Assembly (NCBI GenBank): GCA_965216465.1
Contig: CBDCFW010000003.1
Span: 32,001-96,000, forward strand
Direction of reading: 5' to 3'
Length of the DNA stretch: 64,000 nt
DNA from: Bacteroidia bacterium
GTDB taxonomy: Bacteria > Bacteroidota > Bacteroidia > NS11-12g > UBA9320
How positions within the stretch are numbered: the first letter of the stretch is position 1; every line of letters starts with the position of its first letter. The position numbers and the translations under genes were made by a program. The notes beneath the pieces are model-generated. The model saw nothing but the letters and a program-made list of their open reading frames with translations. It searched no databases and was not told the DNA's origin. Positions 8,056 to 40,069 of the stretch are shown here, piece by piece.

Positions 8056-9173
8056 CTGCTGGTTTTGGGTTAACATCATTTTCTCAGGTTTATCAAGATT
8101 CGCTTGCTGCAAAAGTGAACCAAGTAGATTCAGTTTTTGAGCAGGTTTTTGCGTACGAAAGCTTTGGGCCAAAGCCGATCGGAAGTGACTCTTTAGAACA
8201 GGTAAGAGCTTGGTTGACTGAGAAGTACACGCAGTATGGGTATACGGTAAGTTATGATACTTTCTCCCGTGGTCAGATAGAATGTTATAATGTAATAATT
8301 GAGAAAAAAGGTGATGATTCAACCAAGTGGGTGATAGTTGGTGCTCATTACGATTCGGTTGATGATGGGCCTGGAGCTAATGACAACGGAACAGGAGTTG
8401 TGGCAACGCTTCAGATTGCAAAAATTATCAAATCAATAAGCACAAAGCATAGTGTGCGAATTATCAATTTTTCTGCGGAAGAAACAGGGTTCAATGGAAG
8501 TTCACATTACGTATCAAATACGCTGGATACCACTGATAATGTGTTACTTATGATAAATCTTGATCAGCTTGGCGGAACGGCAAATGCAGATAATTCGAAA
8601 ATTGTTTGCGAACGAGACGAAGACGATAACCCCATTGAAAACAATCAAGCATCTCATTTGAGTACAGATACATTAGCACGATTAGTAGCTTTGTACACCG
8701 ACCTAACTCCAACGCTCGATAGAGCCTTTTCGAGTGATTATGTCCCATTTGAAAATGCGGGTTATGTAATTACAGGCTTGTATCAAGAGAGCGATTATCC
8801 ATTTTATCACACGGCAAATGATGTGACATCAAACATTGACATAGAAGCTACTACAGAAGTAATTAAAGGAGCAACAGCTGCGGTTTTACATTTCAGTGGA
8901 ATGAAAGGGCTGAGTTCAATCAAACCTGTTGCAAGAGCACAAGCCAAAATTTATCCCAATCCAACTTCCAATAGTTTTATGATAAAGACTGATCAGAACG
9001 AAGCTGTAATGATTGAGTACTACAATCAATTGGGTCAAATGGTGATGAGAAAGAAAGTAATTACAAATACTTCTATTTCTGTAACCGAACTGATGTGGGG
9101 GAGTTACACACTTCAAATTTCTGGATTGAACGATGAATATTTAACACGTGCAAGGCTTATTATTGCACCCTGA
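8028..9173 (+). CDS. M28-family peptidase with T9SS type A C-terminal domain
   Basis: GAHYDS, PGANDNGTG, SAEE; IYPNP...Y.L.I tail; signal peptide. Confidence 0.88.
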   Translation: MQRIFSLILAAGFGLTSFSQVYQDSLAAKVNQVDSVFEQVFAYESFGPKPIGSDSLEQVRAWLTEKYTQYGYTVSYDTFSRGQIECYNVIIEKKGDDSTKWVIVGAHYDSVDDGPGANDNGTGVVATLQIAKIIKSISTKHSVRIINFSAEETGFNGSSHYVSNTLDTTDNVLLMINLDQLGGTANADNSKIVCERDEDDNPIENNQASHLSTDTLARLVALYTDLTPTLDRAFSSDYVPFENAGYVITGLYQESDYPFYHTANDVTSNIDIEATTEVIKGATAAVLHFSGMKGLSSIKPVARAQAKIYPNPTSNSFMIKTDQNEAVMIEYYNQLGQMVMRKKVITNTSISVTELMWGSYTLQISGLNDEYLTRARLIIAP

Positions 9174-9176
9174 AAA

Positions 9177-10544
9177 ATGAAGTATTTCTGTTGGGGAGCA
9201 GCACGTCAGGTTACCGGGAGTATGCATCTACTGCGTTTCGAAACCGGGTTTTCAATGCTTATTGATTGTGGAATTGATTATGAAGATAAATCAAACAAAA
9301 CGATTAATGCTGTTTTTCCTTTTGAGCCCAGCGAAATTGATGTTTTAGTGTTGACTCATGCACACATTGATCACAGTGGCAATATTCCCAATCTAGTACG
9401 TCAAGGATTTAAAGGCGAAGTAATTTGTACAGAACCAACTGCCTATCTTTTAGATAAGTTATGGACTGATTCTGTGGGAATTATGAATGCGGATAGTAAG
9501 CGTAAGGATAGGGTGAAACTGTATGGTTATAAGGATGTTAGAGATGCTTGTGAGCGAATATTAACACTGCCTTTTTATAAGGAGTTTTCTGTACATGATG
9601 ATGTCTCAATAGAACTTTTCGAGGCGGGTCACATTATTGGTGCCGCCAGCGTTTCTGTTAAATATAAAGAAGGACGAAAGGAGAAGAGAATCGGATTCAC
9701 TGGAGACCTTGGTAATCCAGGATCAACCTTAATTGTTGACTCCAATGTCATGCCTAAGCTAGACTATTTGGTGACGGAAACAACGTATGGAAACAGACTG
9801 CATAAAGAGACTCGCTCGGCAGAAGATGTGCTTTACGAACAAGTTTACGAATCGTGTGTCAAAAATAACGGGAGATTAATTATTCCTGCATTCAGTGTAG
9901 GAAGAACTCAAGCTATTTTGTTTACACTCAAGAAGCTTTTTAAGTCTAAAAAGTTACCACCTATTAGAGTTTTTGCAGACAGTCCATTGGCGTTAGCAAG
10001 TACAAATATTCATAATCGATTCAGCGACTTTCTGAATTTGGAAGCTCGTTCGTATGCTAAAGATCAAGGCAGCTTATTCGATTTTAAAAGCTTGCAACTG
10101 GTTGAGGATGAAGAAGATGTAGAAGAAATGGATTACTATCAAGATGCCTGTATTATAGTTTCTTCTGCCGGAATGTTAGAAGGAGGGAGAATACAGCAAC
10201 ATGTAAGTGATCACATTCAAAATCCCAAGTGCACAATACTTATCGCAGGTTTCTGTTCGCCAGGCACGTTGGGTGAGAAGTTGCTATCTGGGGCCACAAT
10301 GTTAAAGATAAAGGGCAAGGAGAAGTATGTTTATGCTAATATTCTACAGACTGATGTATTTAGTGCACATCCAGATGCAAATGGGTTGAAGGAGTATTTA
10401 AATGAGTCGGACCATTCGGCATTAAAGAAAATCATATTTGTTCATGGAGAGGAAGAGTCTATGGAGCTGCTTAAGGCTGACTTACCCTCAGCATTGGCTG
10501 AAAAGGTTCAAATTCCTGAACGAGGAGAAGAGTTTAATCTTTAG
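9177..10544 (+). CDS. MBL-fold beta-CASP metallo-hydrolase (RNA-processing family)
   Basis: THAHIDHSG, AGHIIG, FSVGRTQ, FSAHPD, VHGE. Confidence 0.9.
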   Translation: MKYFCWGAARQVTGSMHLLRFETGFSMLIDCGIDYEDKSNKTINAVFPFEPSEIDVLVLTHAHIDHSGNIPNLVRQGFKGEVICTEPTAYLLDKLWTDSVGIMNADSKRKDRVKLYGYKDVRDACERILTLPFYKEFSVHDDVSIELFEAGHIIGAASVSVKYKEGRKEKRIGFTGDLGNPGSTLIVDSNVMPKLDYLVTETTYGNRLHKETRSAEDVLYEQVYESCVKNNGRLIIPAFSVGRTQAILFTLKKLFKSKKLPPIRVFADSPLALASTNIHNRFSDFLNLEARSYAKDQGSLFDFKSLQLVEDEEDVEEMDYYQDACIIVSSAGMLEGGRIQQHVSDHIQNPKCTILIAGFCSPGTLGEKLLSGATMLKIKGKEKYVYANILQTDVFSAHPDANGLKEYLNESDHSALKKIIFVHGEEESMELLKADLPSALAEKVQIPERGEEFNL

Positions 10545-10554
10545 GTTCAAATCT

Positions 10555-10686
10555 TGAATGCAAAATATCGAGTGACTATCTACTTAACTGCAAATATGAT
10601 GAGATAAGATTGTAGTGCTGAGATAGCCACCCAATATTTTAACTAACCTTATTAATTTATAAACCGCCGCACGATCTCTCATTGCG
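10555..10686 (-). ncRNA. Candidate sRNA-1 (hairpin RNA; ends approximate)
   Basis: 20-bp stem 10640-10621 / 10581-10562, fully paired on the minus strand with three G-U pairs; upstream box and -7-like TTAGTTCG. Confidence 0.6.
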
Positions 10687-10721
10687 ACACTGCGAACTAA
10701 GCTAAGAACGAACGCTTAATT

Positions 10722-10739
10722 TGTAGTAAATCATTGATT
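10722..10739 (-). promoter_or_regulatory. Repeated box copy 1 (AATCAATGATTTACTACA)
   Basis: Upstream of -7-like TTAGTTCG (10700-10693) at the shared spacing. Confidence 0.75.
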
Positions 10740-10759
10740 TTTATGAAGTAGAACTTTTT

Positions 10760-10872
10760 ATGTCTGATTGTAGATGTGAAGTTGAGAAGCTAGCCTTCGA
10801 GATCATAACTCCCTTACGTTAGAATGTTCGGCTAGCCCCCAACATCGTACTAATAACTACTATACTTAATGT
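10760..10872 (-). ncRNA. Candidate sRNA-2 (hairpin RNA; ends approximate)
   Basis: Stem GUUGGGGGCUAGCC (10843-10830) / GGCUAGCUUCUCAAC (10795-10781) with G-U pairs on the minus strand; upstream box and -7-like GACATTTG. Confidence 0.55.
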
Positions 10873-10906
10873 ATCTTCAAATGTCAGATTCTTGAATGAC
10901 TTAAAA

Positions 10907-10924
10907 TGTAGTAAATTGTTGATT
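10907..10924 (-). promoter_or_regulatory. Repeated box copy 2 (AATCAACAATTTACTACA)
   Basis: Upstream of -7-like GACATTTG (10885-10878) at the shared spacing. Confidence 0.75.
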
Positions 10925-10933
10925 ATTAGGCAT

Positions 10934-10963
10934 AAAAAAAGGCTTTGGAAGTCCAAAGCCTTT
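10934..10963 (-). terminator. Intrinsic terminator of the 541-aa/390-aa operon
   Basis: GGCTTTGGA/TCCAAAGCC stem with U7 tail on the minus strand, 20 nt after the stop at 10983. Confidence 0.85.
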
Positions 10964-10982
10964 AATTTCTTGTTGCGATCGT

Positions 10983-12155
10983 TTAATCTTGTTTAACAAA
11001 TGGCAACATTTGTGAAGCTTGACGCGGAACGTCAATCTTCAGGTAATACATTCCGTGACTCAAGTCGGAAGTGTTTACGGTATAGGTGTTTCCAGATTTT
11101 ATTTGCGTCTGTATATCAACAATCTTAACAGGTTGACCAAGTGTGTTTTGTATTGAAATGATAGGGTCGTGAACGAGCAATAAGTTAGAGGCGTCATTGA
11201 TTTTAAACTTAAGCTCATATGTTACTACAGTCGGGAAGACCTCAATTTGAACACCGTCAATTGTTCGGTCTAAAATTGCAATACGATGGTATTCATGGCT
11301 TTCGTCAAAGTCAACTTGTTTCAAGCGATAGAATACTTGATTGATGCCATGCAGGTTTTTGTCCTGAAAGCTATATTGAAGTATTTGATTTGAGTTACCG
11401 TTGGGTGCAGCACTCTTCACAACCCCAATTTTCTCAAAAAATGTTCCATCTAAACTCCGTTCAACTTCAAAGTGTTGGTTGTTGATTTCAGTAGCTGTTG
11501 ACCAATAAACCAGAGCCTCAGTTTCTGAGGTCCACCTAGCATCAAAGCTTAAAAGTTTAACTGGCAATGGAATCGTGTCTGAAGACTGCGTTAAATTGTA
11601 CGACGTAAATATTGTTGAAGGATTAGGTCTCATGGTTATGTTGGGTATAAAACCATTAACGGTCATGGTGCTGTCAAATCCTGTTGGTCCAACTCCGTTA
11701 ACGGCTTGAAGCATTCTAACAGTGGCTCCAGCAGTTGGATTCGAAAACTTTAATTTGTATATCGTATCAATGGTACCTGCGGTGGAAACATTTCCAAAAT
11801 CCGTTGGTCCGTTAATGGTATAATCGATAAATGCCAAATTATCCGGATTAGATCCCATCCCACCAGCTACAGTGGCTGCATCAAATGAATTACCTAAGTT
11901 CCATGTTCCTTGCACATCGGTTTTAGTTATTGTGCCTAAATCTTCGTCGTACCACAACGATATTCTTGAATTATTGGTAACTCTCATCCCTGTTGCTGCT
12001 GGGTTTGCTGGCCATTCAAGGTAAACAGCAACTTCATCAAAGTTAGTGCCTATTGGAACCATTTTGACTTCTGGAGCTTGGGAATAAACTCTTGATCCAG
12101 CTAGGCATAAAAGGCTCATAAAAACGATTTTACTTATTCTCATTTTAATTTTCAT
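10983..12155 (-). CDS. T9SS type A cargo protein with N-terminal beta-sandwich (possibly cohesin-like)
   Basis: Signal peptide; LPVKLLSF...WSTATEINN...FEVERS...YRLKQVDFD Ig-like domain; FPT...GMYYLKI CTD. Confidence 0.85.
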   Translation of the reverse strand: MKIKMRISKIVFMSLLCLAGSRVYSQAPEVKMVPIGTNFDEVAVYLEWPANPAATGMRVTNNSRISLWYDEDLGTITKTDVQGTWNLGNSFDAATVAGGMGSNPDNLAFIDYTINGPTDFGNVSTAGTIDTIYKLKFSNPTAGATVRMLQAVNGVGPTGFDSTMTVNGFIPNITMRPNPSTIFTSYNLTQSSDTIPLPVKLLSFDARWTSETEALVYWSTATEINNQHFEVERSLDGTFFEKIGVVKSAAPNGNSNQILQYSFQDKNLHGINQVFYRLKQVDFDESHEYHRIAILDRTIDGVQIEVFPTVVTYELKFKINDASNLLLVHDPIISIQNTLGQPVKIVDIQTQIKSGNTYTVNTSDLSHGMYYLKIDVPRQASQMLPFVKQD

Positions 12156-12183
12156 TTTGCGTGTTGATTTATATTTTGTTTGA

Positions 12184-13809
12184 TTATGGTAATTGTTGTG
12201 TTAAACCTGAAAAACCTTGTGAACCTCCAAAGAAGGTGTTTGAGGGATGACTTAAAATGACATTCAGAATCTCAGTGACATCATTATCTGTTCCTTCATA
12301 TTTTACATCTCCATCCATATTAATGTCGCTCATAGAATAGACTCCCGAATAATTAAACCCTTGAGATCCACCCAAAAATGTATTGCCAGGTGCTGCCAGA
12401 ACGATATTCAAGATTTCTGTAACGTCATTTCCGGAGCCTTCATAGAGTATAGATTCATCGTAGTTTACATCTCCAACCCACATGGCGTTTACGCCAGACT
12501 GACTTGCTGCAGCATTTGTACCAAATAGCGATACTGTACTGAAATCAAGTGATTTCCCTGACGATGTGAGTTGAATCGGATTTGCGGCCATTATACCAAA
12601 GTGGTTACGATGACGTACAGATACATAAACAGAATCGCTAACAGGACTCGAGAAACAAAGAGCACTGGTGCCGTCTGTGCTCACAATGTCTCCATCTCGC
12701 TGAATTAATGCCGACTGAGTTTCGAGAACTGTACTGCTGTTTGAAGTGTCTCGAAGTTCGATCATAACCCAATCTACTATAGCGTCGTTGCCAGTAACGC
12801 TCAATACGGTAGTTGTAGTTGTCTCACCACCACCATTTCCAGCATGAGAAAAGGCTGTGAGGGAAGTATAGGGCTCAGTAAGCGGAATTAAATTGTTGGA
12901 CCGCAGATGATCTGACATTGTAGTTCCAGAGCCGCTAATAAGTGCACCTTGCAAATAAGCCTTCGCCGATAAGCAAACATCTCCAATTTCTGCTAGGGCA
13001 TACACTTCAAAGGTGTTTGGAATAAGAGCAGCATCGGTAGAAATGGTTCCTGAATCTACAATTGATGAGCTTCCTGCAAAAGAAAGTGTACTCTGACCAG
13101 CAAGCATGGCTGTGGCATCTACTGTAGATTCAATTTGAACCCATTTTGATCCGTCCCAACCTACGATAGTTAAGTTTTGAATATTTCCTGAGGTAAAGGT
13201 GTTCATGTCGTCTGACAAGTTCCACGAAAGGGTAATTATTGCACTGTTTGAGCTGTTAATGTCCCAGTATCCTGAATTGTTCACACTTCCTATGCCGTCT
13301 TCAACACTGTCTGTATTAAATGTAGATCCTCCTGGTAGAGCTCCATAATCTATACCATCAATTCGGTCGGTTATGGCCATTGTTGGATCGGCATTGTAAT
13401 AAGCTACATTAGCATCTCCACCAACGCTGCTTAAGCCAACTGGATTATAAGTTCCATTATCTCCAACGGGAAAAACAAAGCCTCCTGTGTGATAACATCT
13501 AACATAGCCATCAACATGTGCGTTAGTATTTGCATTTTGCCATGATCCTGTGGTCGTAAAACTTAAGTAGCCAGGAACACTAGAATCTCGATCTGTTCCG
13601 ACAAGTCCAGAGTAGATGCCAGAGCCTGTTGTGAAGTTGTGTTCTCCAAAAATGGCCATTTCACCGCCTTTGGTAATATTAATTGAGGCAAAGGAGCCAG
13701 ATTGTCCAAATGTGCTTGTACTAACTAAGGTTAACACACAGACGGCCATCCCAGCTAGCAATTTTCTTATACCATAAAAATCGCTTAGTAGTTTGTTTGT
13801 TTCTTTCAT
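12184..13809 (-). CDS. Secreted protein with C-terminal dockerin-like duplicated Ca-binding domain
   Basis: Signal peptide; VDGYV...FPVGD...YWDI region; C-terminal GDVNYDESILYEGSGND and SDINMDGDVKYEGTDND repeats; no T9SS CTD. Confidence 0.75.
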   Translation of the reverse strand: MKETNKLLSDFYGIRKLLAGMAVCVLTLVSTSTFGQSGSFASINITKGGEMAIFGEHNFTTGSGIYSGLVGTDRDSSVPGYLSFTTTGSWQNANTNAHVDGYVRCYHTGGFVFPVGDNGTYNPVGLSSVGGDANVAYYNADPTMAITDRIDGIDYGALPGGSTFNTDSVEDGIGSVNNSGYWDINSSNSAIITLSWNLSDDMNTFTSGNIQNLTIVGWDGSKWVQIESTVDATAMLAGQSTLSFAGSSSIVDSGTISTDAALIPNTFEVYALAEIGDVCLSAKAYLQGALISGSGTTMSDHLRSNNLIPLTEPYTSLTAFSHAGNGGGETTTTTVLSVTGNDAIVDWVMIELRDTSNSSTVLETQSALIQRDGDIVSTDGTSALCFSSPVSDSVYVSVRHRNHFGIMAANPIQLTSSGKSLDFSTVSLFGTNAAASQSGVNAMWVGDVNYDESILYEGSGNDVTEILNIVLAAPGNTFLGGSQGFNYSGVYSMSDINMDGDVKYEGTDNDVTEILNVILSHPSNTFFGGSQGFSGLTQQLP

Positions 13810-13947
13810 TCAAATTGTATTTAATGTAGTTAATAAATAGTACTCTGATTTTCACAGCAATTGGTCGAACCTTATGCATTGTGGCCGAACCCAATTGGTC
13901 TCATCGAGTAATCAACGGCAAAAGTGTATCGCGAGAAACAGTCGATT

Positions 13948-13965
13948 TGTAGTAAATCGTTGATT
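13948..13965 (-). promoter_or_regulatory. Repeated box copy 3 (AATCAACGATTTACTACA)
   Basis: Upstream of -7-like CACTTTTG (13926-13919), ahead of the 541-aa gene. Confidence 0.78.
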
Positions 13966-14008
13966 TTGAAGAAAAGAGAAAAATTTTAAAATAAAAGCGG
14001 GTATGAGC

Positions 14009-14659
14009 TTAGTGAATTAGGTCGTTCTCGATTCCAAACAGGGTTAATTCTACCATATTGTTAACATTCAGCTTTTGAAATATGCGGTGACGATATGTGC
14101 CAATCGTAGAAGAATGGATGTTCAACTCATCTCCTACGTCTTTCGATGTATAACCATTGATGTAAAGTAACATAACCTCCATTTCTCGGGTGGTCAACTT
14201 GTCTAAAAGTTCATTACTTGTAGTTGAGATTGAAGATGACAATTTAGACACCAACTGTGTACAAACATATTTTCGACCTTCAAGAACTTCTCTTATGGCA
14301 TAAATAATATCCTCGAAAGGGGCATTTTTAGATATGTAACCCTTGGCTCCAGCTTTTATCAGTCGAATCGCAAAGGCCTCAGCAGGATACATTGACATTA
14401 TCAATACCTTTAAGTCGGGATAGGTCTCCAGAATTCTACTAATGCCTGTAATAGGGTTGCTATGCTCCATCTTTAGATCAGCCACCAACAAGTCATATTT
14501 TTTTTGGCTGAGCTTCTGCATGGTCTCTTCATAGCTACTTACGCCGTCAATTTTAGACATCGAATTGATGCTTCTAAGACGCTGAATGAGGCCTTGACGA
14601 ATTATTTCATGATCGTCAGCAATTAAAAAGTGTAGTGGTTGGTCCTGATCATTTAACAT
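14009..14659 (-). CDS. NarL/LuxR-family response regulator (UvrY/GacA-like)
   Basis: IADDHEIIRQG, ADLKM phospho-Asp, SMYP..FAIRLIKAGAKGYISK, LTTREMEV...TIGTYRHRIFQKL HTH. Confidence 0.92.
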   Translation of the reverse strand: MLNDQDQPLHFLIADDHEIIRQGLIQRLRSINSMSKIDGVSSYEETMQKLSQKKYDLLVADLKMEHSNPITGISRILETYPDLKVLIMSMYPAEAFAIRLIKAGAKGYISKNAPFEDIIYAIREVLEGRKYVCTQLVSKLSSSISTTSNELLDKLTTREMEVMLLYINGYTSKDVGDELNIHSSTIGTYRHRIFQKLNVNNMVELTLFGIENDLIH

Positions 14660-14710
14660 AAGTATAGACTAAATAATACTGCAAATTGAAGCCTATTATC
14701 TCAATTTTCT

Positions 14711-14728
14711 TGTAGTAAATCATTGAGA
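14711..14728 (-). promoter_or_regulatory. Repeated box copy 4 (TCTCAATGATTTACTACA)
   Basis: Upstream of -7-like TCAATTTG (14689-14682), ahead of the response regulator itself. Confidence 0.72.
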
Positions 14729-14779
14729 TTTAGGGGTTATATAGCAAATCATAACCTCAATTTAAGTGATTTGTTTGAA

Positions 14780-14797
14780 AATCAATAATTTACTACA
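14780..14797 (+). promoter_or_regulatory. Repeated box copy 5 (AATCAATAATTTACTACA)
   Basis: 24/26 identical to the reverse complement of the copy 3 region; upstream of -7-like CTTAATTG. Confidence 0.75.
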
Positions 14798-14843
14798 AAT
14801 CGATTGAGCGACTAAACCTTAATTGCGGTTAAAAGAAGTAGCC

Positions 14844-15077
14844 ATGCTTGAAACTAAGGAGATTAACTATAAGCCGGAGTCCTTGTCTTCAAAATCGATT
14901 GGTATTCAGTCCTATGCAGACCGTAGAGTCAAACTTAGCAGGCGTGTGAATCGGGATTATACCGTGCTTAGGATCATTTTCAAACCCAAGAATTTAATCC
15001 TCATTGTCGTATTTATGAATCTGGTCGTATTAGACACTTTAATTCAATCATTTAAACGAAAGAAGAAAACTAGATGA
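14844..15077 (+). CDS. Small hypothetical protein, one C-terminal TM segment plus basic tail
   Basis: ATG at 14844; LILIVVFMNLVVL then KRKKKTR; overlaps the next start. Confidence 0.45.
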   Translation: MLETKEINYKPESLSSKSIGIQSYADRRVKLSRRVNRDYTVLRIIFKPKNLILIVVFMNLVVLDTLIQSFKRKKKTR

Positions 15078-15346
15078 AAACTAATTCTACAGAAACTATA
15101 GATCAACGCAAATATTTGTATACCTCTTTGTTTCGAAGAAAACTGGTATGCGAATTTGTTCCATGGCAAACAGAATCTCAATTAACATTAGCTACACCAG
15201 ATGGTGAAGAAGTCTTGTCGCTAGCAATAGCATCAAATACACGCCGTATTGCGCTTGAATTGGATCAACTCAATCCTGGGTTTTATCGATTAAGCCTTGG
15301 AGTAGTAGGAGTTGCCACAATTTCGCAATCCGTAGTGCTTTTTTAA
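15074..15346 (+). CDS. Small protein resembling a stand-alone T9SS type A CTD
   Basis: LATPDGEEV...LELDQLNPGFYRLSL...SVVLF pattern; no signal peptide. Confidence 0.5.
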   Translation: MKTNSTETIDQRKYLYTSLFRRKLVCEFVPWQTESQLTLATPDGEEVLSLAIASNTRRIALELDQLNPGFYRLSLGVVGVATISQSVVLF

Positions 15347-15459
15347 TTTGCAGTTGATTTATATCTCATTTGAGATTTTCTATATGCTTCTTTAATAAAA
15401 ATTATAAGAATGAGCATCTAAATATATACAGATGCAAGGCTCAAACAGCAGAACTTTGT

Positions 15460-15610
15460 AATGAAAATTATAGCCTTAGCTTGGGGGCGGAAGAAGAAAT
15501 TATCAATGGGTTAATATGTTTCTCGTTCCCCCTAGTGAGCCCAGCATATGGATGTAAGTTCCTCAGATATTAACCATTGTATCATTGTAAGGTGACTGGG
15601 CTGTTTTTCA
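15460..15610 (+). ncRNA. Candidate structured RNA (two hairpins)
   Basis: CUUGGGGG (15480-15487) / CCCCCUAG (15528-15535) stem, then AGCCCAG/CUGGGCU stem followed by GUUUUU; -7-like GAACTTTG upstream. Confidence 0.35.
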
Positions 15611-15715
15611 ACCACATATATCAAATAATTGGCATTTTTTAACATCTTTTTTGATGTTTCTTTATATAGATTTGTATATACAATTAAATACAAAACTGTT
15701 ACAAATTTGACCTGT

Positions 15716-16024
15716 ATGTCATTCGATCCCAACCATAATCACTCAATCACATTAACGGAAGCCGGTAATATGACTGAGGCCTTTAGAGTATCCAATCCAA
15801 CAGAAAAGATTGGAGGCTTTTTTGGTAAGAAAGCAATTCAAGATATTTTGGACCAAACCGATTGTGTAGGTTTGAAATTTTACTTTGCACGAAATAATGG
15901 TGACCTTACTTTGGTTGTTTGTGGTGCCAAAGCCAATCAAGACGATCTATATAATGGAGAACTCGCCGAATTTTCTTACGTCGACCCACCTTACAGTAGC
16001 TCATCCAATCCGTTGAATAGCTAA
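15716..16024 (+). CDS. Small hypothetical protein (102 aa) heading a sensor module
   Basis: ATG at 15716, 6 nt after -7-like CAAATTTG; ITLTEA...FFGKKAIQDIL.Q..CVGLKFYF...LVVCG...DL...PPYS...NPLNS. Confidence 0.8.
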   Translation: MSFDPNHNHSITLTEAGNMTEAFRVSNPTEKIGGFFGKKAIQDILDQTDCVGLKFYFARNNGDLTLVVCGAKANQDDLYNGELAEFSYVDPPYSSSSNPLNS

Positions 16025-16027
16025 CCA

Positions 16028-16687
16028 ATGGAAGATTACTACTTGAGTGTTAGGATTATAACCTATAGCTTGTTGATCCTTGTTTCATTATTTCGATTGC
16101 TGCAAGAACGCACTCGAGTAGTAATCTTGATTTTGATTTATGCACAGATTTGTCTACTGACTGACTTTCTTGATGTTGTATACATTTCATCAAATCTTGA
16201 ATTGTATTCAATTTTTAATTTGTGTCGAATCTTAATTATCTATTTTTTAATATCTCCTCAATTTTCAAATAGACTTATTCTTTATCTTAGCTTCGGTTTT
16301 TTTGTACTCATTACGGGACTTGCATTTCTAGGAACGTATAATTTTGAGTTCCTAAATTCTCATACGATTTATACTTCGAACTATGGATTTTTAGATACTT
16401 ATGAAAATAACTTACTTCTGCTGATACAAACCGTGGTCGTATTGCCTCTGTTATTTTTTGCGGTATATAAAGCAATAGCAACACCCACTACAAAATCACA
16501 GGTAAGATATTATGCAACCTGCTTTGCTTTTATCTTATCTTATGCCGGAATGCTGTTTAGTACGATTTTAGGAAATTTTATAATTCTTGATTTTAAGCTT
16601 TTTATTGAAATTTCAACTTTGATACTATACACAGTCTTTTTACTTTCGAATGGATTTCTACTTGGGGGACTTTTATGGAAGAAATAA
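16028..16687 (+). CDS. Multi-pass (6-7 TM) membrane protein, probable sensor subunit
   Basis: Successive hydrophobic segments; overlaps the kinase start. Confidence 0.75.
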   Translation: MEDYYLSVRIITYSLLILVSLFRLLQERTRVVILILIYAQICLLTDFLDVVYISSNLELYSIFNLCRILIIYFLISPQFSNRLILYLSFGFFVLITGLAFLGTYNFEFLNSHTIYTSNYGFLDTYENNLLLLIQTVVVLPLLFFAVYKAIATPTTKSQVRYYATCFAFILSYAGMLFSTILGNFIILDFKLFIEISTLILYTVFLLSNGFLLGGLLWKK

Positions 16688-17421
16688 AACTGGCGGTTTA
16701 CTTGGGTTCGTTCTTGTTGCTGGCAATATTGCTAGTAACTGTGCTTATAATCCTTTTTGCTCAAAAAAAGAAACGAGAAGCCCTCCTCCAACTAAAAGAT
16801 AGTGAAATCGAACATCAAAAAGAGCTAGCCATCAACAATATCCAAGCTCATGAAGATGAACGTCAGCATATTGGCCAAGAATTGCACGACGATCTCGGGC
16901 AGCAGCTTGCATCTGTAAAAATGCAAATGGAATCTGGCGTAATCAGCAATGACCTATCAAAAGTGGAATTAGCGATGGATAACATGTCTCAAGCCATTTC
17001 TAAGGTGTCAAACATCTCCAGACTGCTTTATCCTGTAGTGCTTAAGAAGTTCGGCCTAGTAAAAGCTTTAGAGCATTTGACAGCCAATACAGAAGCAGAT
17101 ATTACGTTGGCCATCCACGACGAAATATCAAAAATTGAAGATTACAATATGCATTTGCATATCTATCGTATATATCAAGAACTAATTTCCAATAGTATAA
17201 AACATAGTAAGAGTACATCGATTCAAATGAAATTATCCAAAGAAAGCGAAGGATATTTGCTGAGCTATTCCGATGATGGAGTAGGGTTTGACTATGAAAA
17301 CTCAAACTATGGTCTTGGTTTGCACAATATAAAAATCAGAGTTGACAGCATCGGAGGTAATCTTGAAATTAAAACAGCCCCTGATGAAGGCTTTAACTGC
17401 ACAATAACATTTAATCCATGA
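16675..17421 (+). CDS. Sensor histidine kinase (HisKA_3 / NarX-like), single TM
   Basis: ERQHIGQELHDDLGQ, YRIYQELISNSIKHS, DDGVGF, GLGLHNI. Confidence 0.93.
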   Translation: MEEIKLAVYLGSFLLLAILLVTVLIILFAQKKKREALLQLKDSEIEHQKELAINNIQAHEDERQHIGQELHDDLGQQLASVKMQMESGVISNDLSKVELAMDNMSQAISKVSNISRLLYPVVLKKFGLVKALEHLTANTEADITLAIHDEISKIEDYNMHLHIYRIYQELISNSIKHSKSTSIQMKLSKESEGYLLSYSDDGVGFDYENSNYGLGLHNIKIRVDSIGGNLEIKTAPDEGFNCTITFNP

Positions 17422-18059
17422 ACACAACAACCATTTGTATAGCAGATGACCACGAAATAGTTAGAGAGGGATTTGTTACCCTACTGAATTCTTTTGATGA
17501 ATTAGAAGTGCTTTTTGATACTTCTAATGGACAAGAGTTGCTAGACCGGCTGAAAAACTCAGCCCTGCCTGATGTTATTTTACTTGATGTTGATATGCCC
17601 ATATTAGACGGCGTTGAGACCTTGAAGGCATTAAGGTCAGCCTATGGAGACAAAGTAAAGGTGCTTGGCTTATCGATGCACGAAGAATACTTTATTGTTC
17701 AAAATCTATTGGAACTTGGTGCGAATGGATTTATATCTAAATCTGCATCGGCCAAACAAGTAAAGAATGCAATTTTAACCGTAATGGAATATGATTTCTT
17801 TTTAAGTCCTCAAATGTCGAAGTCATTATTTGGAAGTAAGTTCAAAGACAGTGCAGGCTGTGCTGAACTTTCAAAAGTAGAAGAAGAAATAGTGGTGTTG
17901 ATTTGTAACCAATTGAATAACAAGCAAATAGCTGCAGAATTGAAGCTTTCTCCAAACACGGTAAATGCCTACCGAACCAAAATATTAGAAAAAACGGAAG
18001 CGACCAATGCCGCAGGACTAGTTGTTTACGCTATCCGTAATGGTCTCTTCAAGGTCTGA
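17418..18059 (+). CDS. NarL/LuxR-family response regulator
   Basis: IADDHEIVREG, LLDVDMP, C-terminal LuxR HTH; overlaps the kinase stop. Confidence 0.93.
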   Translation: MNTTTICIADDHEIVREGFVTLLNSFDELEVLFDTSNGQELLDRLKNSALPDVILLDVDMPILDGVETLKALRSAYGDKVKVLGLSMHEEYFIVQNLLELGANGFISKSASAKQVKNAILTVMEYDFFLSPQMSKSLFGSKFKDSAGCAELSKVEEEIVVLICNQLNNKQIAAELKLSPNTVNAYRTKILEKTEATNAAGLVVYAIRNGLFKV

Positions 18060-33485: not shown

Positions 33486-36400
33486 TCATTTTACAATCTT
33501 AATAACCTTTTCTTGTCCGTTGTAATCAACCTTCAAGAAGTAAAGACCGCTTGGAAGTTGACTTAGGTTATTAATATTGATCATTGCTAATTCGTTTCTT
33601 TTATTTCCTTCTGTAACAATTATCTCAGTACCTTGAACATCAAGGATTGAAATCTTGTATTCTCCAATTCCATTGATAAGTACATTAACGTAGTCGTTTA
33701 CCAAAGTAGGGAAAGCTGTAATGTCGTTAAGTTGATCGTTTTTAAGTGATACGATTTCAGAGTATGAAGACGCTCCATCAAAATCATGTTGTTTCACACG
33801 GTAGAAGATGAAGGACGTTTTAAGCTCTTTCACATTCGCATCGACGTAGGCATAATTATTGACTTCTTCGCTATGACCACTTGCACTGACGACGGCTATA
33901 GGTTCAAACTGTTCGTTTATTCCCATTCGTTCCAATTCGAAGTGAGAGGCATTAACCTCAGAGAATGTAGACCATTCAACAAGTCCGTCGCGCTCTGTAA
34001 GCCATGAAGCCTGAATTGATCTCCAGCTTACAGGAAGATAAGGTTGTCCTGATGTAGTATGGAAACCAAAGTCATTTCCACCATCGTACGAACCTCCTTG
34101 AACAAATGAAGCACTTTCTGTCATGTACTGACTTGTGGTCGTATAGAAGGTGTCAAATGCCGTTCCTGCAATTACGGGACGCATTAAGAAGTCTCCAATA
34201 CTATCGGTTACAAATACATACAATCCTGTGGTAGGTTGAGAGTAAGTGCTGTCGATAATGCGGTCTGCAGAGGTAATTATACCATCTCCATCAACATCGC
34301 GATAGAGGTATACCTTAAATCCACCGTGTGCACTGTCAATCTCTCGGTTATACGATCCAGACACATCATCGTCATAGAAAACTACACCTGAAATAACATT
34401 GGTTAAAGGACCAGTTAAACAATCGCAAGCTTCTAAATCTGTTGCACCACCTGTTTCGCTAGTTAATGTAGCAATTTCAGTTCCAACTCCTGTATTTCTA
34501 TCGATTTGATAAATGGTGTTGTCTGAGTAAGTATTTGTACCTGATACACCTGTTGTACCATACAATTCTCCGGTATTGTAATATCCCATACCTTCAAAGT
34601 CACCCACTCCAATAAATGATAGCACTTCTGCACTACCGGTAGCAGGGTCAATGGTAATGTATCTTGCACTGTCACCATTTCCTCTGTTATTTACAGCTAA
34701 AAGCTGACCAGAATATGGGTTGAAGGCAATATCATCAACGTCAACCATCACTCTGGTACCAATGATTTTCACAAAATCTATACCTGCACCAAAGAAATCA
34801 GGCTGATAAGATCCAGTTCCTCGGTTAATTACAAAAAGTAGGTCTGGAGCTCCATTTCTACGCTCAACACCGTATAAAATTCCATTAATTGGGTCAAATG
34901 CCATTCCATCTACATCATTTAACGTCTCTGTAGATATTGTTCCACCACTTAAAATACCTGAGGCAGTACCCATACCTGTACCAATTTCGGTGAATTCTCC
35001 AGTTAGTAAATCAACTGAACCGAACTGACCTTCGTCACAAGCCCATAAACTGTCCATTCCAATTTTAAGTGCCATGGCTTCAATCAGATCGCGTCCATAA
35101 ACCTGACCTGCAAATTGACTTTTCCCGCTGATTCTATTTACCAGATAGTATTCATCCTGGTTGCCTTGGTCGTCGGCTATTACAACACATAAGCTACGAG
35201 GACCCAACATTCCAAAATCTGCAACTATGGTGTCAGTACCTGCTGATAATGTGAAGTTTAGCACCGTATCTGTGGTGAAAGTTGTACTGGCATCCAAATC
35301 TTCAGTAGAAAGTTTGACTACCAAATTGGTAACACTGTCTTTATCATCTAAAAAGTAGGAGTAGTTTGCTAATGCATCGGTTAGGCTAGAATTTAGCAAT
35401 TCGTCAGCAGTATACACTCCATCATTATTTGCATCGTTAAAAATCTCTATTTCTACGGCTCCGGATCCATACGAATCGTAAGCATCTTTTACGCTATTTG
35501 CATCCATGTCCATGAATACATTACCACTAACATATCTTCCTCGCAATCCAACAAGCTCTAAGTTGAAACCAAGGTCATTATTGGATGCACCAACATTGTG
35601 GATCTCAACGGCTATAACATTGGTGCCAGTTACCAACTCGTCAACAGGTAAGATAAAACGTTCGTAATCACCTTCGTCGTCACCTTCTGCCATGTGTAAG
35701 GCGTAGGTACTGTAATCCCAAGTAGAAGGCATTCCTACTTCGAGTATTTGTACACCGTTTAAATAAATAACAGCTCCATCGTCAGCTAACAGATCTAGCT
35801 GAAGGGCTGTATAAGTACTATCCGAAACATCAAAAGTTTGTCTGAAATAAGTTGTAGGGTATCGATTGTTCGAAGCACTACCATAGTCTATAGTCGTTGT
35901 TATGGATGCTCCATCAATTGTACCGTAACCAAAAATTCTTTCACCCGTAAGCCAGTTCGAATCGTTATACGATGTGCCATACCAAGAGGTGCCCAAGTTT
36001 GCCCCTGAATCGTGGTATTGCCATTCGCTAATACTCGTTATCAGGTGATCAGACAAGTCGAGAGCTGTTACTTCAAGGTCTAAGGCGATGTCTTGATTGT
36101 GTACATAGAAATTGTGCAATTCAACCGCAAACGTGTTTACGCCTTCAATTAAAAAGGTGTCGAGAATGTGAAATGCTGTGTAATTTCCTTCCTCAGCTCC
36201 ATCTACATTTACTGTAGCCTCTGTAAGATAGGTAATTGTTCCTGTAGGCATATTGTACCGAAAGGCTTCTTTACCGTTAATGTACACAACAGCACCGTCG
36301 TCGCACAAAAGATTGAGCTCTAAATGAGAGTTGTTGAGGCTGCCTAGTGTTACCTCTTTTCTGTAATACGTCGTAAGTTTACGGGTAACTGGTGTTGATT

Positions 36401-36626
36401 GTGTTGCTCCAATAATTCCACCTTTCCCAAAGATTCCTTGATCGACTTCCCATGACGAAACGTCAAATCCGGAGTCAATCCATGAAGTGCCTTGATCAGA
36501 CCCATCGTCGAGATAGGTCCACATGTCCTCCTTATCAATGAGGGTTGTTTGAGCAATAAGGTCGTTGGTTAGCATTCCTAATAGGATTAGAAATAACCCG
36601 CCAACAATGTTAGCTGTATTCTTCAT
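33486..36626 (-). CDS. Large T9SS type A cargo protein, paralog A (2 jelly-roll domains, SdrD-B-like domains, beta-propeller)
   Basis: Signal peptide; two W.Y.D.G...G..W...DDGAV.Y.NG repeats; SG.VF.D repeats; DGMAFDP/DDIAFNP blades; LPVSW...CTD. Confidence 0.85.
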   Translation of the reverse strand: MKNTANIVGGLFLILLGMLTNDLIAQTTLIDKEDMWTYLDDGSDQGTSWIDSGFDVSSWEVDQGIFGKGGIIGATQSTPVTRKLTTYYRKEVTLGSLNNSHLELNLLCDDGAVVYINGKEAFRYNMPTGTITYLTEATVNVDGAEEGNYTAFHILDTFLIEGVNTFAVELHNFYVHNQDIALDLEVTALDLSDHLITSISEWQYHDSGANLGTSWYGTSYNDSNWLTGERIFGYGTIDGASITTTIDYGSASNNRYPTTYFRQTFDVSDSTYTALQLDLLADDGAVIYLNGVQILEVGMPSTWDYSTYALHMAEGDDEGDYERFILPVDELVTGTNVIAVEIHNVGASNNDLGFNLELVGLRGRYVSGNVFMDMDANSVKDAYDSYGSGAVEIEIFNDANNDGVYTADELLNSSLTDALANYSYFLDDKDSVTNLVVKLSTEDLDASTTFTTDTVLNFTLSAGTDTIVADFGMLGPRSLCVVIADDQGNQDEYYLVNRISGKSQFAGQVYGRDLIEAMALKIGMDSLWACDEGQFGSVDLLTGEFTEIGTGMGTASGILSGGTISTETLNDVDGMAFDPINGILYGVERRNGAPDLLFVINRGTGSYQPDFFGAGIDFVKIIGTRVMVDVDDIAFNPYSGQLLAVNNRGNGDSARYITIDPATGSAEVLSFIGVGDFEGMGYYNTGELYGTTGVSGTNTYSDNTIYQIDRNTGVGTEIATLTSETGGATDLEACDCLTGPLTNVISGVVFYDDDVSGSYNREIDSAHGGFKVYLYRDVDGDGIITSADRIIDSTYSQPTTGLYVFVTDSIGDFLMRPVIAGTAFDTFYTTTSQYMTESASFVQGGSYDGGNDFGFHTTSGQPYLPVSWRSIQASWLTERDGLVEWSTFSEVNASHFELERMGINEQFEPIAVVSASGHSEEVNNYAYVDANVKELKTSFIFYRVKQHDFDGASSYSEIVSLKNDQLNDITAFPTLVNDYVNVLINGIGEYKISILDVQGTEIIVTEGNKRNELAMININNLSQLPSGLYFLKVDYNGQEKVIKIVK

Positions 36627-36680
36627 CTAGTCATAAATTAATCGAGTAGTGCACGCACCACTCTAATGGTTAGTTATGAA

Positions 36681-36868: not shown

Positions 36869-39800
36869 TTATTTGATAATTCGAATTATATGATCTTCAT
36901 CATCGAGTCGCAGTCGAATGAGGTACATTCCGTCGCGAAGTTGGGTTAGTCCATTAAGTCTCAGGGGGGTAAGTATACTATCTTTCGTGCCTGAAGTATG
37001 AATGACTTCGGCTCCGTGCAGGTTAAGAACGGTTAGTTCATAGTAACCTGTAGCATTAATATTTATGTTTATGTGGTCATCTACCGGATTTGGGTAGGCA
37101 GAAACAACCGTTTCATTTTCTTTGTTCAATACAGCAATCTCAGAATAACTAAATTGTCCATCGTAATCAAACTGCTTAATTCTATAGAATAGGGTAGGAG
37201 CAGTTAAATCAACTGCGGTATAATCTAAAATAGCATAGTTCGAAACGTCGTTTGAATTACCAGCGGCTTGAACAGTCGCAATTTTTTCGAACTCTCCCAA
37301 TTCTGTTTTACGCTCTACCTCAAAGTAGTCTGAGTTTACTTCTGAAGCGGTTGACCAAGAAACCTTTGCGGTTTTTTCGTCAATCCATTCTGCTTCAATT
37401 TCTAACCATTCAACCGGTAAGTAAGGTTGACCCGCATTAATGTGGAATCCAAAGTCATTTCTTCCATCAAATAAACCATGAAACTCAAATTCTGCATCTT
37501 CAGTAAGCAATGAATCTGTGGTTGTATTCATGTTCTGGAATACAGTTCCAGGTACAGATGGATGTGTTAAGAAAAATCCTAAAGAGTCGGTTATAAATAC
37601 ATAAAACCCTGTTCCAGCTGCGGTATATGTACTGTCTATGATATAGTCACCAGAATCGATGATTCCATTCTCATTGGCATCACGATAAAGATATACAAGT
37701 ATGTTACTATAAGCACTGTCTATGGCTCTACTGTAAGACCCAGAAGAGTCGTTGTCGTAAAACACCACACCCGAAATTAAGTTCTCTGTAGGACCGGTTA
37801 AACAGTCGCAAGCCTCCACGTCGATTGCACCCGAATAAAGCGAATCTAATCGTGTTCCAGCTCCAGTGTTTCTATCAATTTGATAAATTGTGTTATCGTG
37901 ATACCCCGCAGCATCTACAATACCTGTTGTACCATATAACTCTCCAGTATTATAGTAACCTAGTCCTTCAAAGTCACCTACACCAACATATGAAAGAACG
38001 GTAGCTGTTCCTGTAGCTGGATCAATAGAAATATAACGTGTACTATCCCCGTTTCCTTGGCCGTTAATACCCAATAATTGGCCAGTATATGGATTAAATG
38101 CGATATCGTCCACATCTACTTTTACACGAGTACCAATAATCTTTACAAAGTCCTCATTTGTACCAAAGTGATCAGCAATAAAGGTTCCTGCTCCTCGGTC
38201 AATAGCAAAAAGTAAATCTGGTGCACTAGTTCTTCTATGTACACCATAAAGAATGTCGTTAATTGGATCGTAAGCCATACCATCCACATCGTTTAAGTCT
38301 GCAGTACCTATTGAACCACCACTTAAGACTCCCTGGGCAGTACCAATACCGGTTCCAATCGAGGTGAATTCACCCGTCATAATGTCTACAGAACCAAATT
38401 GTCCTTCATCGCAGGCCCACATAGAGTCCATTCCAATTCGAATGGCCAGGGTTTCGATTAAGTCTCTTCCAGCTATTTCAGCAACAAATTGGTTCTTACC
38501 AGATATTCTGTTTGCGATATAATATTCGTCGATATTGTTTTGGTCATCGGCAATTAACAAACATAAACTTCTTGGTCCAAGTTGTCCGAAACATGCTTGA
38601 ACAGAATCCATATTATTTGGGTTCAGGCTAAATGAGTAGGTAGTGTCGGTGGTGAAATCAACACGACTATCCATATCTTCTGTCATTAGTTTAACCCCTA
38701 AGTGTTCAACTTCAATATCCACGATAAAAGAATAAGAACCATCAGGGTTGGTTAATATCGAATCAATACATTCACCCGCAGTATATATTCCATTTGAGTC
38801 TGCATCGTTATAGATTTTGATTTCAACAGCTCCTGAACCAAAAATGTCGTAAATTGATGTGTCAAGACCATCTCCATTCATATCAAGGAAAATGTTACCA
38901 TATAAAACTCTTCCCGTTTTTCCAATAACTTCTAGGTCAAATCCCAAGTCACTACTCGTTGCGTTAACTTGATGCATCTCAACAGCAAAAGTGTTAACCC
39001 CGTCAATCAAGAAAGTGTCAGGAATTGTATAAGCGTCGTAATCTCCTTCGTCAGCACCTGCCGCGGTAAAGTTTGCGTAGGTTAAGTAGTCCCATGTAGC
39101 AGGCATCCCCGCTGTAAAAGCCAGTTTACCGTTAATATATACTGCAGCACCGTCGTCAGCAACCAAATAGCAAGTTAGCTCTGAAAAGCTCGGATTGCTT
39201 AAAGTAACTTCCTTTCTGAAGTAGGTGGTTGGATATTTATTTGAGCTGCTTGATCCCCAGCTTATAGTTGTCGAAATTGTGTTTCCATCAATGGTACCAT
39301 AGCCCAATACGGCATCACCTGTGGCCCAAGAAGCATCGTTAAATCCTGAATCAACCCATGATGTACCTTGATCGGTTCCATCGTCGAGGTAACTCCATTC
39401 GCCGCCTCTAAACATGACATAGTTGCTTGAGTCAACCGCTTCATAGGCAGTAACTTCAAGATCAAATCCAAGGTCTGAACTACCTGAGCTTTGGTTATGC
39501 AATTCAACGGCGATAGTATTTACTCCGTCAATTAAAAACGTATCTGTAATAGTATATACAGTATAGTCTCCTTCATCACTTCCACCAACTGCCGAAGATG
39601 CGGTAGTGGTGTACGTAACGGTGCCTGAAGGCATATTGTAACGATAAGCTTCTTTACCATTAATGTAAATAACTGCACCGTCATCGCAAAGAAGATTTAA
39701 GTCTAACGTACCATTTGAATGGCCTGTAACTGTAACTTCCTTTCTAAAATAAGTTGTAATTTCTTTTACAATGGTTGTGCTGATAGAAGCACCATTGATT

Positions 39801-40006
39801 CCGCCCATTCCGAACACCCCTGATCCCGAAGACCATGATGCATCGTTGAACCCAGAGTCAATCCAAGCGGTTCCTTGATTTGAACCGTCATCAAGATAAT
39901 TCCATGTGTCATTTTGGGTAGTAACAGTTACTTGAGCATTAACCCCTAATGCCAAAAAACACATTGTAAAAATCGTGAAAAAACGTTTAGTAGTAGTTTT
40001 GTTCAT
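36869..40006 (-). CDS. Large T9SS type A cargo protein, paralog B
   Basis: Colinear with 33486-36626 (shared GPRSLC, WACDEGQFGSVD, EACDCLTGP, GQPYLPV); YPNP CTD. Confidence 0.87.
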   Translation of the reverse strand: MNKTTTKRFFTIFTMCFLALGVNAQVTVTTQNDTWNYLDDGSNQGTAWIDSGFNDASWSSGSGVFGMGGINGASISTTIVKEITTYFRKEVTVTGHSNGTLDLNLLCDDGAVIYINGKEAYRYNMPSGTVTYTTTASSAVGGSDEGDYTVYTITDTFLIDGVNTIAVELHNQSSGSSDLGFDLEVTAYEAVDSSNYVMFRGGEWSYLDDGTDQGTSWVDSGFNDASWATGDAVLGYGTIDGNTISTTISWGSSSSNKYPTTYFRKEVTLSNPSFSELTCYLVADDGAAVYINGKLAFTAGMPATWDYLTYANFTAAGADEGDYDAYTIPDTFLIDGVNTFAVEMHQVNATSSDLGFDLEVIGKTGRVLYGNIFLDMNGDGLDTSIYDIFGSGAVEIKIYNDADSNGIYTAGECIDSILTNPDGSYSFIVDIEVEHLGVKLMTEDMDSRVDFTTDTTYSFSLNPNNMDSVQACFGQLGPRSLCLLIADDQNNIDEYYIANRISGKNQFVAEIAGRDLIETLAIRIGMDSMWACDEGQFGSVDIMTGEFTSIGTGIGTAQGVLSGGSIGTADLNDVDGMAYDPINDILYGVHRRTSAPDLLFAIDRGAGTFIADHFGTNEDFVKIIGTRVKVDVDDIAFNPYTGQLLGINGQGNGDSTRYISIDPATGTATVLSYVGVGDFEGLGYYNTGELYGTTGIVDAAGYHDNTIYQIDRNTGAGTRLDSLYSGAIDVEACDCLTGPTENLISGVVFYDNDSSGSYSRAIDSAYSNILVYLYRDANENGIIDSGDYIIDSTYTAAGTGFYVFITDSLGFFLTHPSVPGTVFQNMNTTTDSLLTEDAEFEFHGLFDGRNDFGFHINAGQPYLPVEWLEIEAEWIDEKTAKVSWSTASEVNSDYFEVERKTELGEFEKIATVQAAGNSNDVSNYAILDYTAVDLTAPTLFYRIKQFDYDGQFSYSEIAVLNKENETVVSAYPNPVDDHINININATGYYELTVLNLHGAEVIHTSGTKDSILTPLRLNGLTQLRDGMYLIRLRLDDEDHIIRIIK

Positions 40007-40069
40007 CGTGTAGTAATTATTAGTAGTATAACCCCCATAGAAGTAATTAAATACACTCTACAGTTGGTA

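Follow-up and report, generated by a model that had tools for sequence, protein, structure and literature searches.

Very few base-pairing small RNAs (sRNAs) have, to our knowledge, been characterised in Bacteroidota. In enterobacteria, OmrA and OmrB are encoded by adjacent genes controlled by one two-component system, and their 5' seeds repress mRNAs for envelope and secreted proteins at the start region; the two are Hfq-dependent paralogues with near-identical 5' ends, each with a terminator of its own. The tandem candidates considered here, sRNA-2 and its neighbour sRNA-1, recall that pair in their proposed activation by one two-component system and in their 5' seeds. Within Bacteroidota, GibS of Bacteroides thetaiotaomicron is described as pairing through an extended, single-stranded 5' seed with start regions devoid of a Shine-Dalgarno (SD) sequence, and as a genus-conserved RNA with a mapped start, its own 3' end and metabolic targets (PMC7366714). 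The GacA/UvrY-dependent sRNA genes (RsmY/RsmZ/RsmX and CsrB/C), in turn, were found via a palindromic upstream activating sequence (PMC2375449). Our full-text literature searches returned no paper on sRNA control of type IX secretion system (T9SS) cargo.

The sRNA-2 candidate compares most directly with GibS. Both would be trans-encoded Bacteroidota sRNAs in which a long, A/U-rich, single-stranded 5' seed pairs with a start region and brings about repression, features reported for GibS (PMC7366714) and predicted for sRNA-2. The two have no sequence or Rfam relation, however, and sRNA-2, unlike GibS, occurs in one genome only, lacks a terminator and has T9SS cargo as its predicted target. Judged by its sequence, sRNA-2 is a member of no described family.

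The locus lies in a Bacteroidota-type genome of 3.23 Mb (G000; six contigs, 38% G+C) in which 135 of 2,783 genes (4.9%) carry a T9SS type-A sorting domain above the model cut-off. The window, that is, the whole 64,000-nt stretch analysed, corresponds to C3:32001-96000, and coordinates without a contig label refer to it. The candidate sits in a 438-bp spacer between convergent genes, with a beta-CASP metallo-hydrolase gene (9177-10544, plus strand) on one flank and a T9SS-tailed 390-aa gene (10983-12155, minus strand) on the upstream flank. The latter belongs to a box-driven operon (ORFs 12184-13809 and 10983-12155) that ends in a strong intrinsic terminator (10938..10963, minus strand; an 11-bp stem with 5 G-C pairs, then a T run), and the candidate is therefore isolated from read-through. 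Next on the minus strand come the box TCAACAATTTACTACA (10907..10922), a putative activator site, the -7-like element GACATTTG (10878..10885), whose TTTG begins exactly 25 nt after the box, and the seed GUAUAGUAGUUAUUAGUA (10848..10865), ~8 nt past the predicted transcription start near 10872. Read from 10865 to 10848, this seed, GTATAGTAGTTATTAGTA, starts 12 nt after GACATTTG and lies just 5' of a long G-U-containing hairpin (10779..10846), for which the predicted fold gives arms GAUGUUGGGGGCUAGCC and GGCUAGCUUCUCAACUU, 17 pairs and a 34-nt loop. The order of box, -7-like element, 5' seed and G-U-containing stem is thus present at 10922-10779 as the sequence-only reading had described it.

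In the predicted fold (MFE -29.2 kcal/mol for 136 nt; z = -1.9), the first ~25 nt from the predicted start are mostly unpaired, with a mean unpaired probability of 0.52-0.59. No U tract follows the hairpin on its 3' side, and a terminator scan had no entry at 10846-10779. Further downstream on the same strand, the genomic box search placed a second box, TCAATGATTTACTACA (10722..10737), in front of sRNA-1, which has a 26-nt single-stranded stretch with a AAUAAGGUUAG core (10638..10663). The first structure resembling a terminator beyond the sRNA-2 start is a long terminator hairpin with A and U tracts (10562..10640, minus strand; MFE -38 kcal/mol, z = -3.9; none of 200 shuffles equalled it), which may also terminate the convergent plus-strand gene at 9177-10544. 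Since no terminator follows the sRNA-2 hairpin, the RNA would either be processed or run to the sRNA-1 terminator at ~10562, in the second case as a ~310-nt RNA with two seeds.

No ORF stands behind the sRNA-2 box on the same strand for 4.9 kb, and the unit itself holds only tiny ones. Just two tRNAs in the window reached the Rfam gathering score; at E up to 10, the region 10500-11000 gave seven weak matches, all far under it. Contigs from three sequencing runs of one study, compared over 9000-15000, came from the same organism and showed no differences in the spacer, and thus offered no strain variation to exploit. In two of these runs (X1 and X2) a 611-nt contig of high depth (39-67) matched the 36 nt upstream of the sRNA-1 box (10737-10772) with five differences, and run X3 showed the same loose ends there; this contig probably derives from another organism with a short stretch in common.

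The box, TCAAYRATTTACTACA, occurs in nine exact copies in the genome, all of them intergenic, where a composition estimate gives a chance expectation of ~0.03 copies. Each copy is followed after exactly 25 nt by a TTTG-like tetramer (TTTG, TTCG, CTTG, TTGC; AATA once), and across the nine, 14 of 16 positions are identical without an indel. On these counts, box and -7-like element form a genuine promoter-like motif that is strongly over-represented. Seven boxes stand 25-138 nt before a same-strand ORF, and the two without an ORF behind them, in tandem, head the sRNA-2 and sRNA-1 units. Five are clustered within 4.1 kb around a response-regulator gene, preceding the operon for the 541-aa and 390-aa proteins, the response regulator itself (14009-14659), a divergent unit and the two ORF-less spacer units. 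Three copies extend into an inverted repeat around ACTAC (TCAAYRATTT-ACTAC-AAATCRAYTG), which fits the expectation for the site of a dimeric HTH protein, and the centre of the sRNA-2 box would lie ~38 nt upstream of the predicted start, in the position of a class-II activator.

The gene at 14009..14659 (minus strand) encodes a NarL/FixJ-type response regulator (REC + GerE), has its own box 51 nt upstream and is our candidate activator of the box promoters. Among NCBIfam models it scores best with UvrY/SirA/GacA, but the 133 bits obtained are far under that model's cut-off of 280, and orthology with GacA/UvrY is therefore not shown. Like the Gac/Rsm systems (PMC2375449), the locus would combine a NarL/FixJ-family regulator with a conserved box, palindromic there and partly so in three of the nine copies here, before several ORF-less units per genome. 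Unlike the Rsm/Csr RNAs, in which many GGA loops titrate CsrA, sRNA-2 has a single GGA, in the hairpin loop, together with an antisense-type seed, and a titrating sRNA of the Gac/Rsm (Csr) type, which would carry multiple GGA motifs, was rejected for that reason. It had also been suggested that a 9-nt match between sRNA-2 and the start of the regulator gene at 14659 might reflect feedback. We rejected this as chance, because 138 of 2,782 start regions reach a run of nine and the regulator ranks only 154th of 2,782 by duplex energy.

The exact box was found in none of the 27 other genomes of the genus, so the box regulon is lineage-specific. A scan of genome contigs across phyla with the 16-mer gave, among the matches listed, single unrelated ones, and the extended box with its spacing occurred in 0 of 80 inspected. 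Divergent from the regulator, on the plus strand of the window (14823-18059), lie small ORFs, a membrane protein gene (16028-16687), a HisKA_3-like kinase gene (16675-17421) and a second LuxR-type response-regulator gene (17418-18059), with domains as read from the sequences; this cluster is the probable sensory module of the box regulon.

The predicted target, paralog B (36869..40006, minus strand), encodes a 1045-aa protein in which a domain search identified a T9SS type-A C-terminal sorting domain. It is 56% identical to paralog A (33486-36626, 1046 aa), and the T9SS tail is the sole recognisable domain of both. A -7 element, TAACTTTG, at 40077-40070 implies a 5' UTR of ~60 nt for paralog B. 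Within this leader, the target TACTAATAATTACTACAC occupies 40025-40008 on the minus strand and is followed by a G and the ATG (40006-40004) of ORF 36869-40006; the site, UACUAAUAAUUACUACAC (40008..40025), thus covers -19..-2 and has a mean unpaired probability of 0.81 in the folded leader. It lies 29 kb from the sRNA-2 candidate, and 17 of the 18 seed positions pair with it: antiparallel alignment of 10865-10848 with 40025-40008 gives 15 contiguous pairs (one G-U), one A/C mismatch and two more pairs. Direct reading of both strands confirmed the sequences and the 15-pair complementarity as they had been claimed, and like the sequence features and motif statistics above, this complementarity is observed directly.

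A pattern search of the window with up to three mismatches returned these two places only (0.03 expected from 100 shuffles). Across the genome (6.46 M positions, both strands), the paralog B site has the most Watson-Crick pairs of any non-self site (16, plus one G-U, of 18). A further 32 sites also reach 15 or more contiguous pairs, but they depend on several G-U pairs and none exceeds 14 Watson-Crick pairs. When a 22-nt seed was compared with -30..+10, paralog B ranked first among 2,783 start regions, at -17.8 kcal/mol. The partners ranked 1, 2 and 4 (paralog B, C3:227903-228646 and C6:932812-934191) are all T9SS cargo genes, as are 7 of the top 50. None of 40 shuffled seeds and none of 75 natural intergenic 22-mers placed three cargo genes in the top four, and seven in the top 50 were equalled by no shuffled seed and by one natural 22-mer; both of these enrichment statistics were picked after the list had been seen, and the top-20 count (3) was unremarkable, since 6 of the 40 shuffles and 4 of the 75 natural 22-mers attained it.

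The neighbouring unit bears on whether sRNA genes are to be expected behind such boxes. The 26-nt stretch of sRNA-1 (10638-10663) is identical to C6:144110-144135, part of a separate sRNA gene (C6:144049-144299; L005/L284) with its own TAnnTTTG -7 promoter and terminator. Homologues of that gene in three genera, namely L285 (G024), L286 (G047) and L289 (G060), keep the promoter, the AAUAAGGUUAG core and a downstream ACUACUAC-type motif, and by this conservation the C6:144110 sRNA represents a conserved sRNA family that Rfam does not list. Another, partial copy is located at C3:291497-291521. As sRNA-1 carries 26 nt of a family sRNA gene, at least one of the two box units without an ORF has the look of a genuine sRNA gene. 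The complement of the family seed, CTAACCTTAT, has 12 genomic copies, five of them within -60..+10 of a start codon, and four of these five are at -14 or -15 of the ATG. T9SS cargo genes make up 3, 4, 7 and 9 of the top 4, 10, 20 and 50 predicted partners of this conserved seed, and at none of these four levels did any of 40 shuffled seeds do as well. This enrichment points to an organism that very probably aims A/U-rich seeds at T9SS cargo start regions.

The sRNA-2 candidate resembles this family in its genome, its A/U-rich unpaired seed and its T9SS-enriched partners, and the family seed is the one re-used by sRNA-1; sRNA-2 differs in that it has no sequence in common with the family, is not conserved and would be driven by the box instead of a TAnnTTTG promoter. 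The layout of sRNA-2 had been said to mirror that of sRNA-1 while pointing at the sister paralog. The box is indeed shared, but the bodies do not align and homology of the two units is confined to it, which sets them apart from OmrA/OmrB, as only the promoter box is common to both. The complementarity of sRNA-2 to paralog B is exactly as had been stated; the match of sRNA-1 to paralog A extends over just 10-12 nt, and paralog A is one among many cargo genes with the motif. Many T9SS cargo start regions contain CTAACCTTAT or ATTAATTTAT at about -16 to -9, complementary to the conserved seed; examples are C5:82412, C6:224695, C1:33363, C6:429958, C5:676794, C6:264024 and window 36627-36650.

Conservation was examined on both sides of the proposed duplex. 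On the target side, ACUAC repeats abut the AUG in five of six leaders from three genera (paralog B and its orthologues in G008, G014, G061 and G062; ~60% protein identity), the leader of G014_a being the one without them. This retention next to the AUG marks the site as a constrained element. Stimulatory adenines at -3, -6, -12 and -13, as described for Flavobacterium johnsoniae (PMC6847099), could account for the conservation equally well, with no sRNA involved. We rejected ACTAC as a motif common to start regions in general, since 58 of 2,782 contain it and 45 contain its reverse complement. When G014, G008, and G061 with G062 were searched for RNAs able to pair with the ACUAC leaders of the orthologues, match counts were no higher than for a reversed control pattern, and the best seven matches inspected in G061/G062 all fell in coding regions, none being intergenic.

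On the sRNA side, a DNA search with the 438-bp spacer found no sRNA-2 homologue in the other 40 related genomes, three of which had short matches to other parts of the spacer; over all 41 genomes, the short matches covered only the box, the 26-nt sRNA-1 stretch and the upstream terminator region. A 106-nt sRNA-2 query against the three closest relatives (G014, G008 and G024) gave chance matches only (E of at least 0.1), six of the eight inspected falling in ORFs or coding-like sequence. A metagenome scan with the neighbouring 390-aa protein returned two loci at 29% identity, too distant for use. In G008, the leader searches had also turned up a pair of GUAGUAGU-type stretches in intergenic DNA, each immediately 5' of an intrinsic terminator (L097, C16:1985-2000; L098, C286:2040-2055). 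L098 is complementary to the ACUAC start region of the G008 paralog B orthologue over 14 pairs (one G-U), either by chance or because the pairing has an independent example there.

Chance is also the main rival for sRNA-2 itself, and a distinctly possible one: two A/U-rich non-coding stretches built of TACTA-like units may simply happen to be complementary, paralog B not being regulated whether or not the spacer is transcribed. The match is not an overwhelming one: 2,358 of 364,052 intergenic 15-mers (0.65%) find a complement with at most one G-U pair in some of the 2,783 start regions, and 16,634 of 292,840 intergenic 40-nt windows (5.7%) contain at least one of them. The 34-nt 5' region of sRNA-2 has a run of 15 in one start region as compared with a mean of 0.1 over 30 shuffles, at most three of which reach one. 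The genome-wide count of seed matches called for by the sequence-only reading cuts both ways, with the best non-self site by Watson-Crick pairs on one side and the frequency of equally long start-region matches on the other. Looser windows (34 nt against -50..+30) lower paralog B to rank 20 of 2,782, shorter runs are not in excess, those of 10 or more being present in 40 start regions versus a shuffle mean of 47.6, and neither a homologue nor covariation was found; moreover, the original observation was limited to 64 kb and included several matches of differing strength. A chance origin fits less well with the position of the match, which lies exactly at a start region and involves the 5' end of a unit that has no ORF and follows a non-random box, or with the T9SS cargo among the top partners. 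By our own arithmetic, with ~50 of ~2,780 start regions inside the window, a chance match there has a probability of ~0.1% per candidate.

Two other explanations do without the proposed duplex. In one, which we regard as very improbable, the loci are linked at the DNA level by a regulator protein and not by RNA, both 18-mers being degenerate operator copies that have TACTAC/ACTACA in common with the box. The AATAATT-ACTACA of the paralog B leader does resemble box site 1, AATAATTTACTACA, and the window has 12 copies of TTACTACA where 2.7 are expected, but the nine boxes agree at 14 of 16 positions without an indel, while both 18-mers depart from them by a gap and several changes, neither shows the 25-nt spacing to a -7 element, and the paralog B copy lies inside a transcribed leader, adjoining the AUG. 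The other, improbable as well, is that the spacer encodes a small protein, either from a 21-codon ORF whose ATG (10806) follows an AAGGGAG of the hairpin loop or on the plus strand, where TACTAATAACTACTATACTTAATG would serve as an ACUAC-type leader to an 8-codon ORF. Both ORFs can be read in the sequence, and an ACUAC-rich stretch with a very short ORF recurs at C4:34713, C4:69171, C4:260616 and C4:261037. The ORFs are tiny, however, the DNA search of 41 genomes revealed no homologues, the plus strand has neither a box nor TAnnTTTG upstream, and SD sequences are described as unused by Bacteroidia ribosomes (PMC6847099).

Our preferred reading, which we hold tentatively, is that sRNA-2 is a plausible lineage-specific base-pairing sRNA with a GibS-like action. 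Its standing as a small RNA, asserted at the outset, is helped by the non-random box, the lack of an ORF and the sister unit with a conserved seed, and weakened by the lack of a homologue and of a terminator of its own. The interval from ~10872 to 10779 (minus strand) would be a lineage-specific non-coding RNA gene, transcribed from an activator-dependent promoter that consists of the 16-nt box and a weak -7 element, with the neighbouring NarL/FixJ-type response regulator probably binding the box; transcription, the identity of the activator and repression are what we infer here. The largely unpaired 5' end would pair with -19..-2 of the paralog B mRNA; weaker pairing with a handful of further T9SS cargo start regions is probable too. 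Such pairing would stop ribosome loading on leaders that lack an SD sequence, as GibS does in Bacteroides. A wider scheme, which we consider somewhat unlikely, would have the two-component system drive both tandem sRNAs, with sRNA-1 re-using the seed of an sRNA family that is conserved across the bacterial family and sRNA-2 supplying a newly arisen one, so that together with the constitutive family member they silence subsets of the ~135 T9SS cargo genes via SD-less start regions. If true, type IX secretion cargo would here have its first described sRNA regulon. If real, the compact circuit of a regulator, a box, two sRNAs and two paralogous cargo genes could reveal how a bacterium with ~135 T9SS substrates selects which to make, and how an sRNA blocks initiation on leaders without an SD sequence.

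Several further features of the genomes touch on these motifs. In G014, ACUACUA(A) repeats that reach the AUG make up nearly the whole leader of a 1000-aa T9SS-type gene (L088, C3:41708-41760). In the genome studied here, repeated intergenic units with ATGGTTAATAAT and GTAGTAGTAGT (reverse complement ACTACTAC ... ATTATTAACCAT) were seen at C4:260300-261200, C4:69100-69260 and C4:34713, two tandem copies ~420 nt apart having strong plus-strand terminators; the unit at C4:69171 has a perfect TAACTTTG -7 element and a terminator, and ATTATTAACCAT is present too in the paralog B orthologue leaders of G061 and G062. The box, for its part, provides a simple handle for locating more regulated non-coding RNAs in this genome. 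Two of its copies, at C3:230382 and C3:281615 (minus strand), stand 33 nt before the ATG of two paralogous genes for Cys-rich secreted proteins of ~305 aa. Should the TTTG-like element be their -7 box, the mRNAs would have almost no leader. Both genes adjoin clusters of T9SS-tailed genes of ~250 aa.
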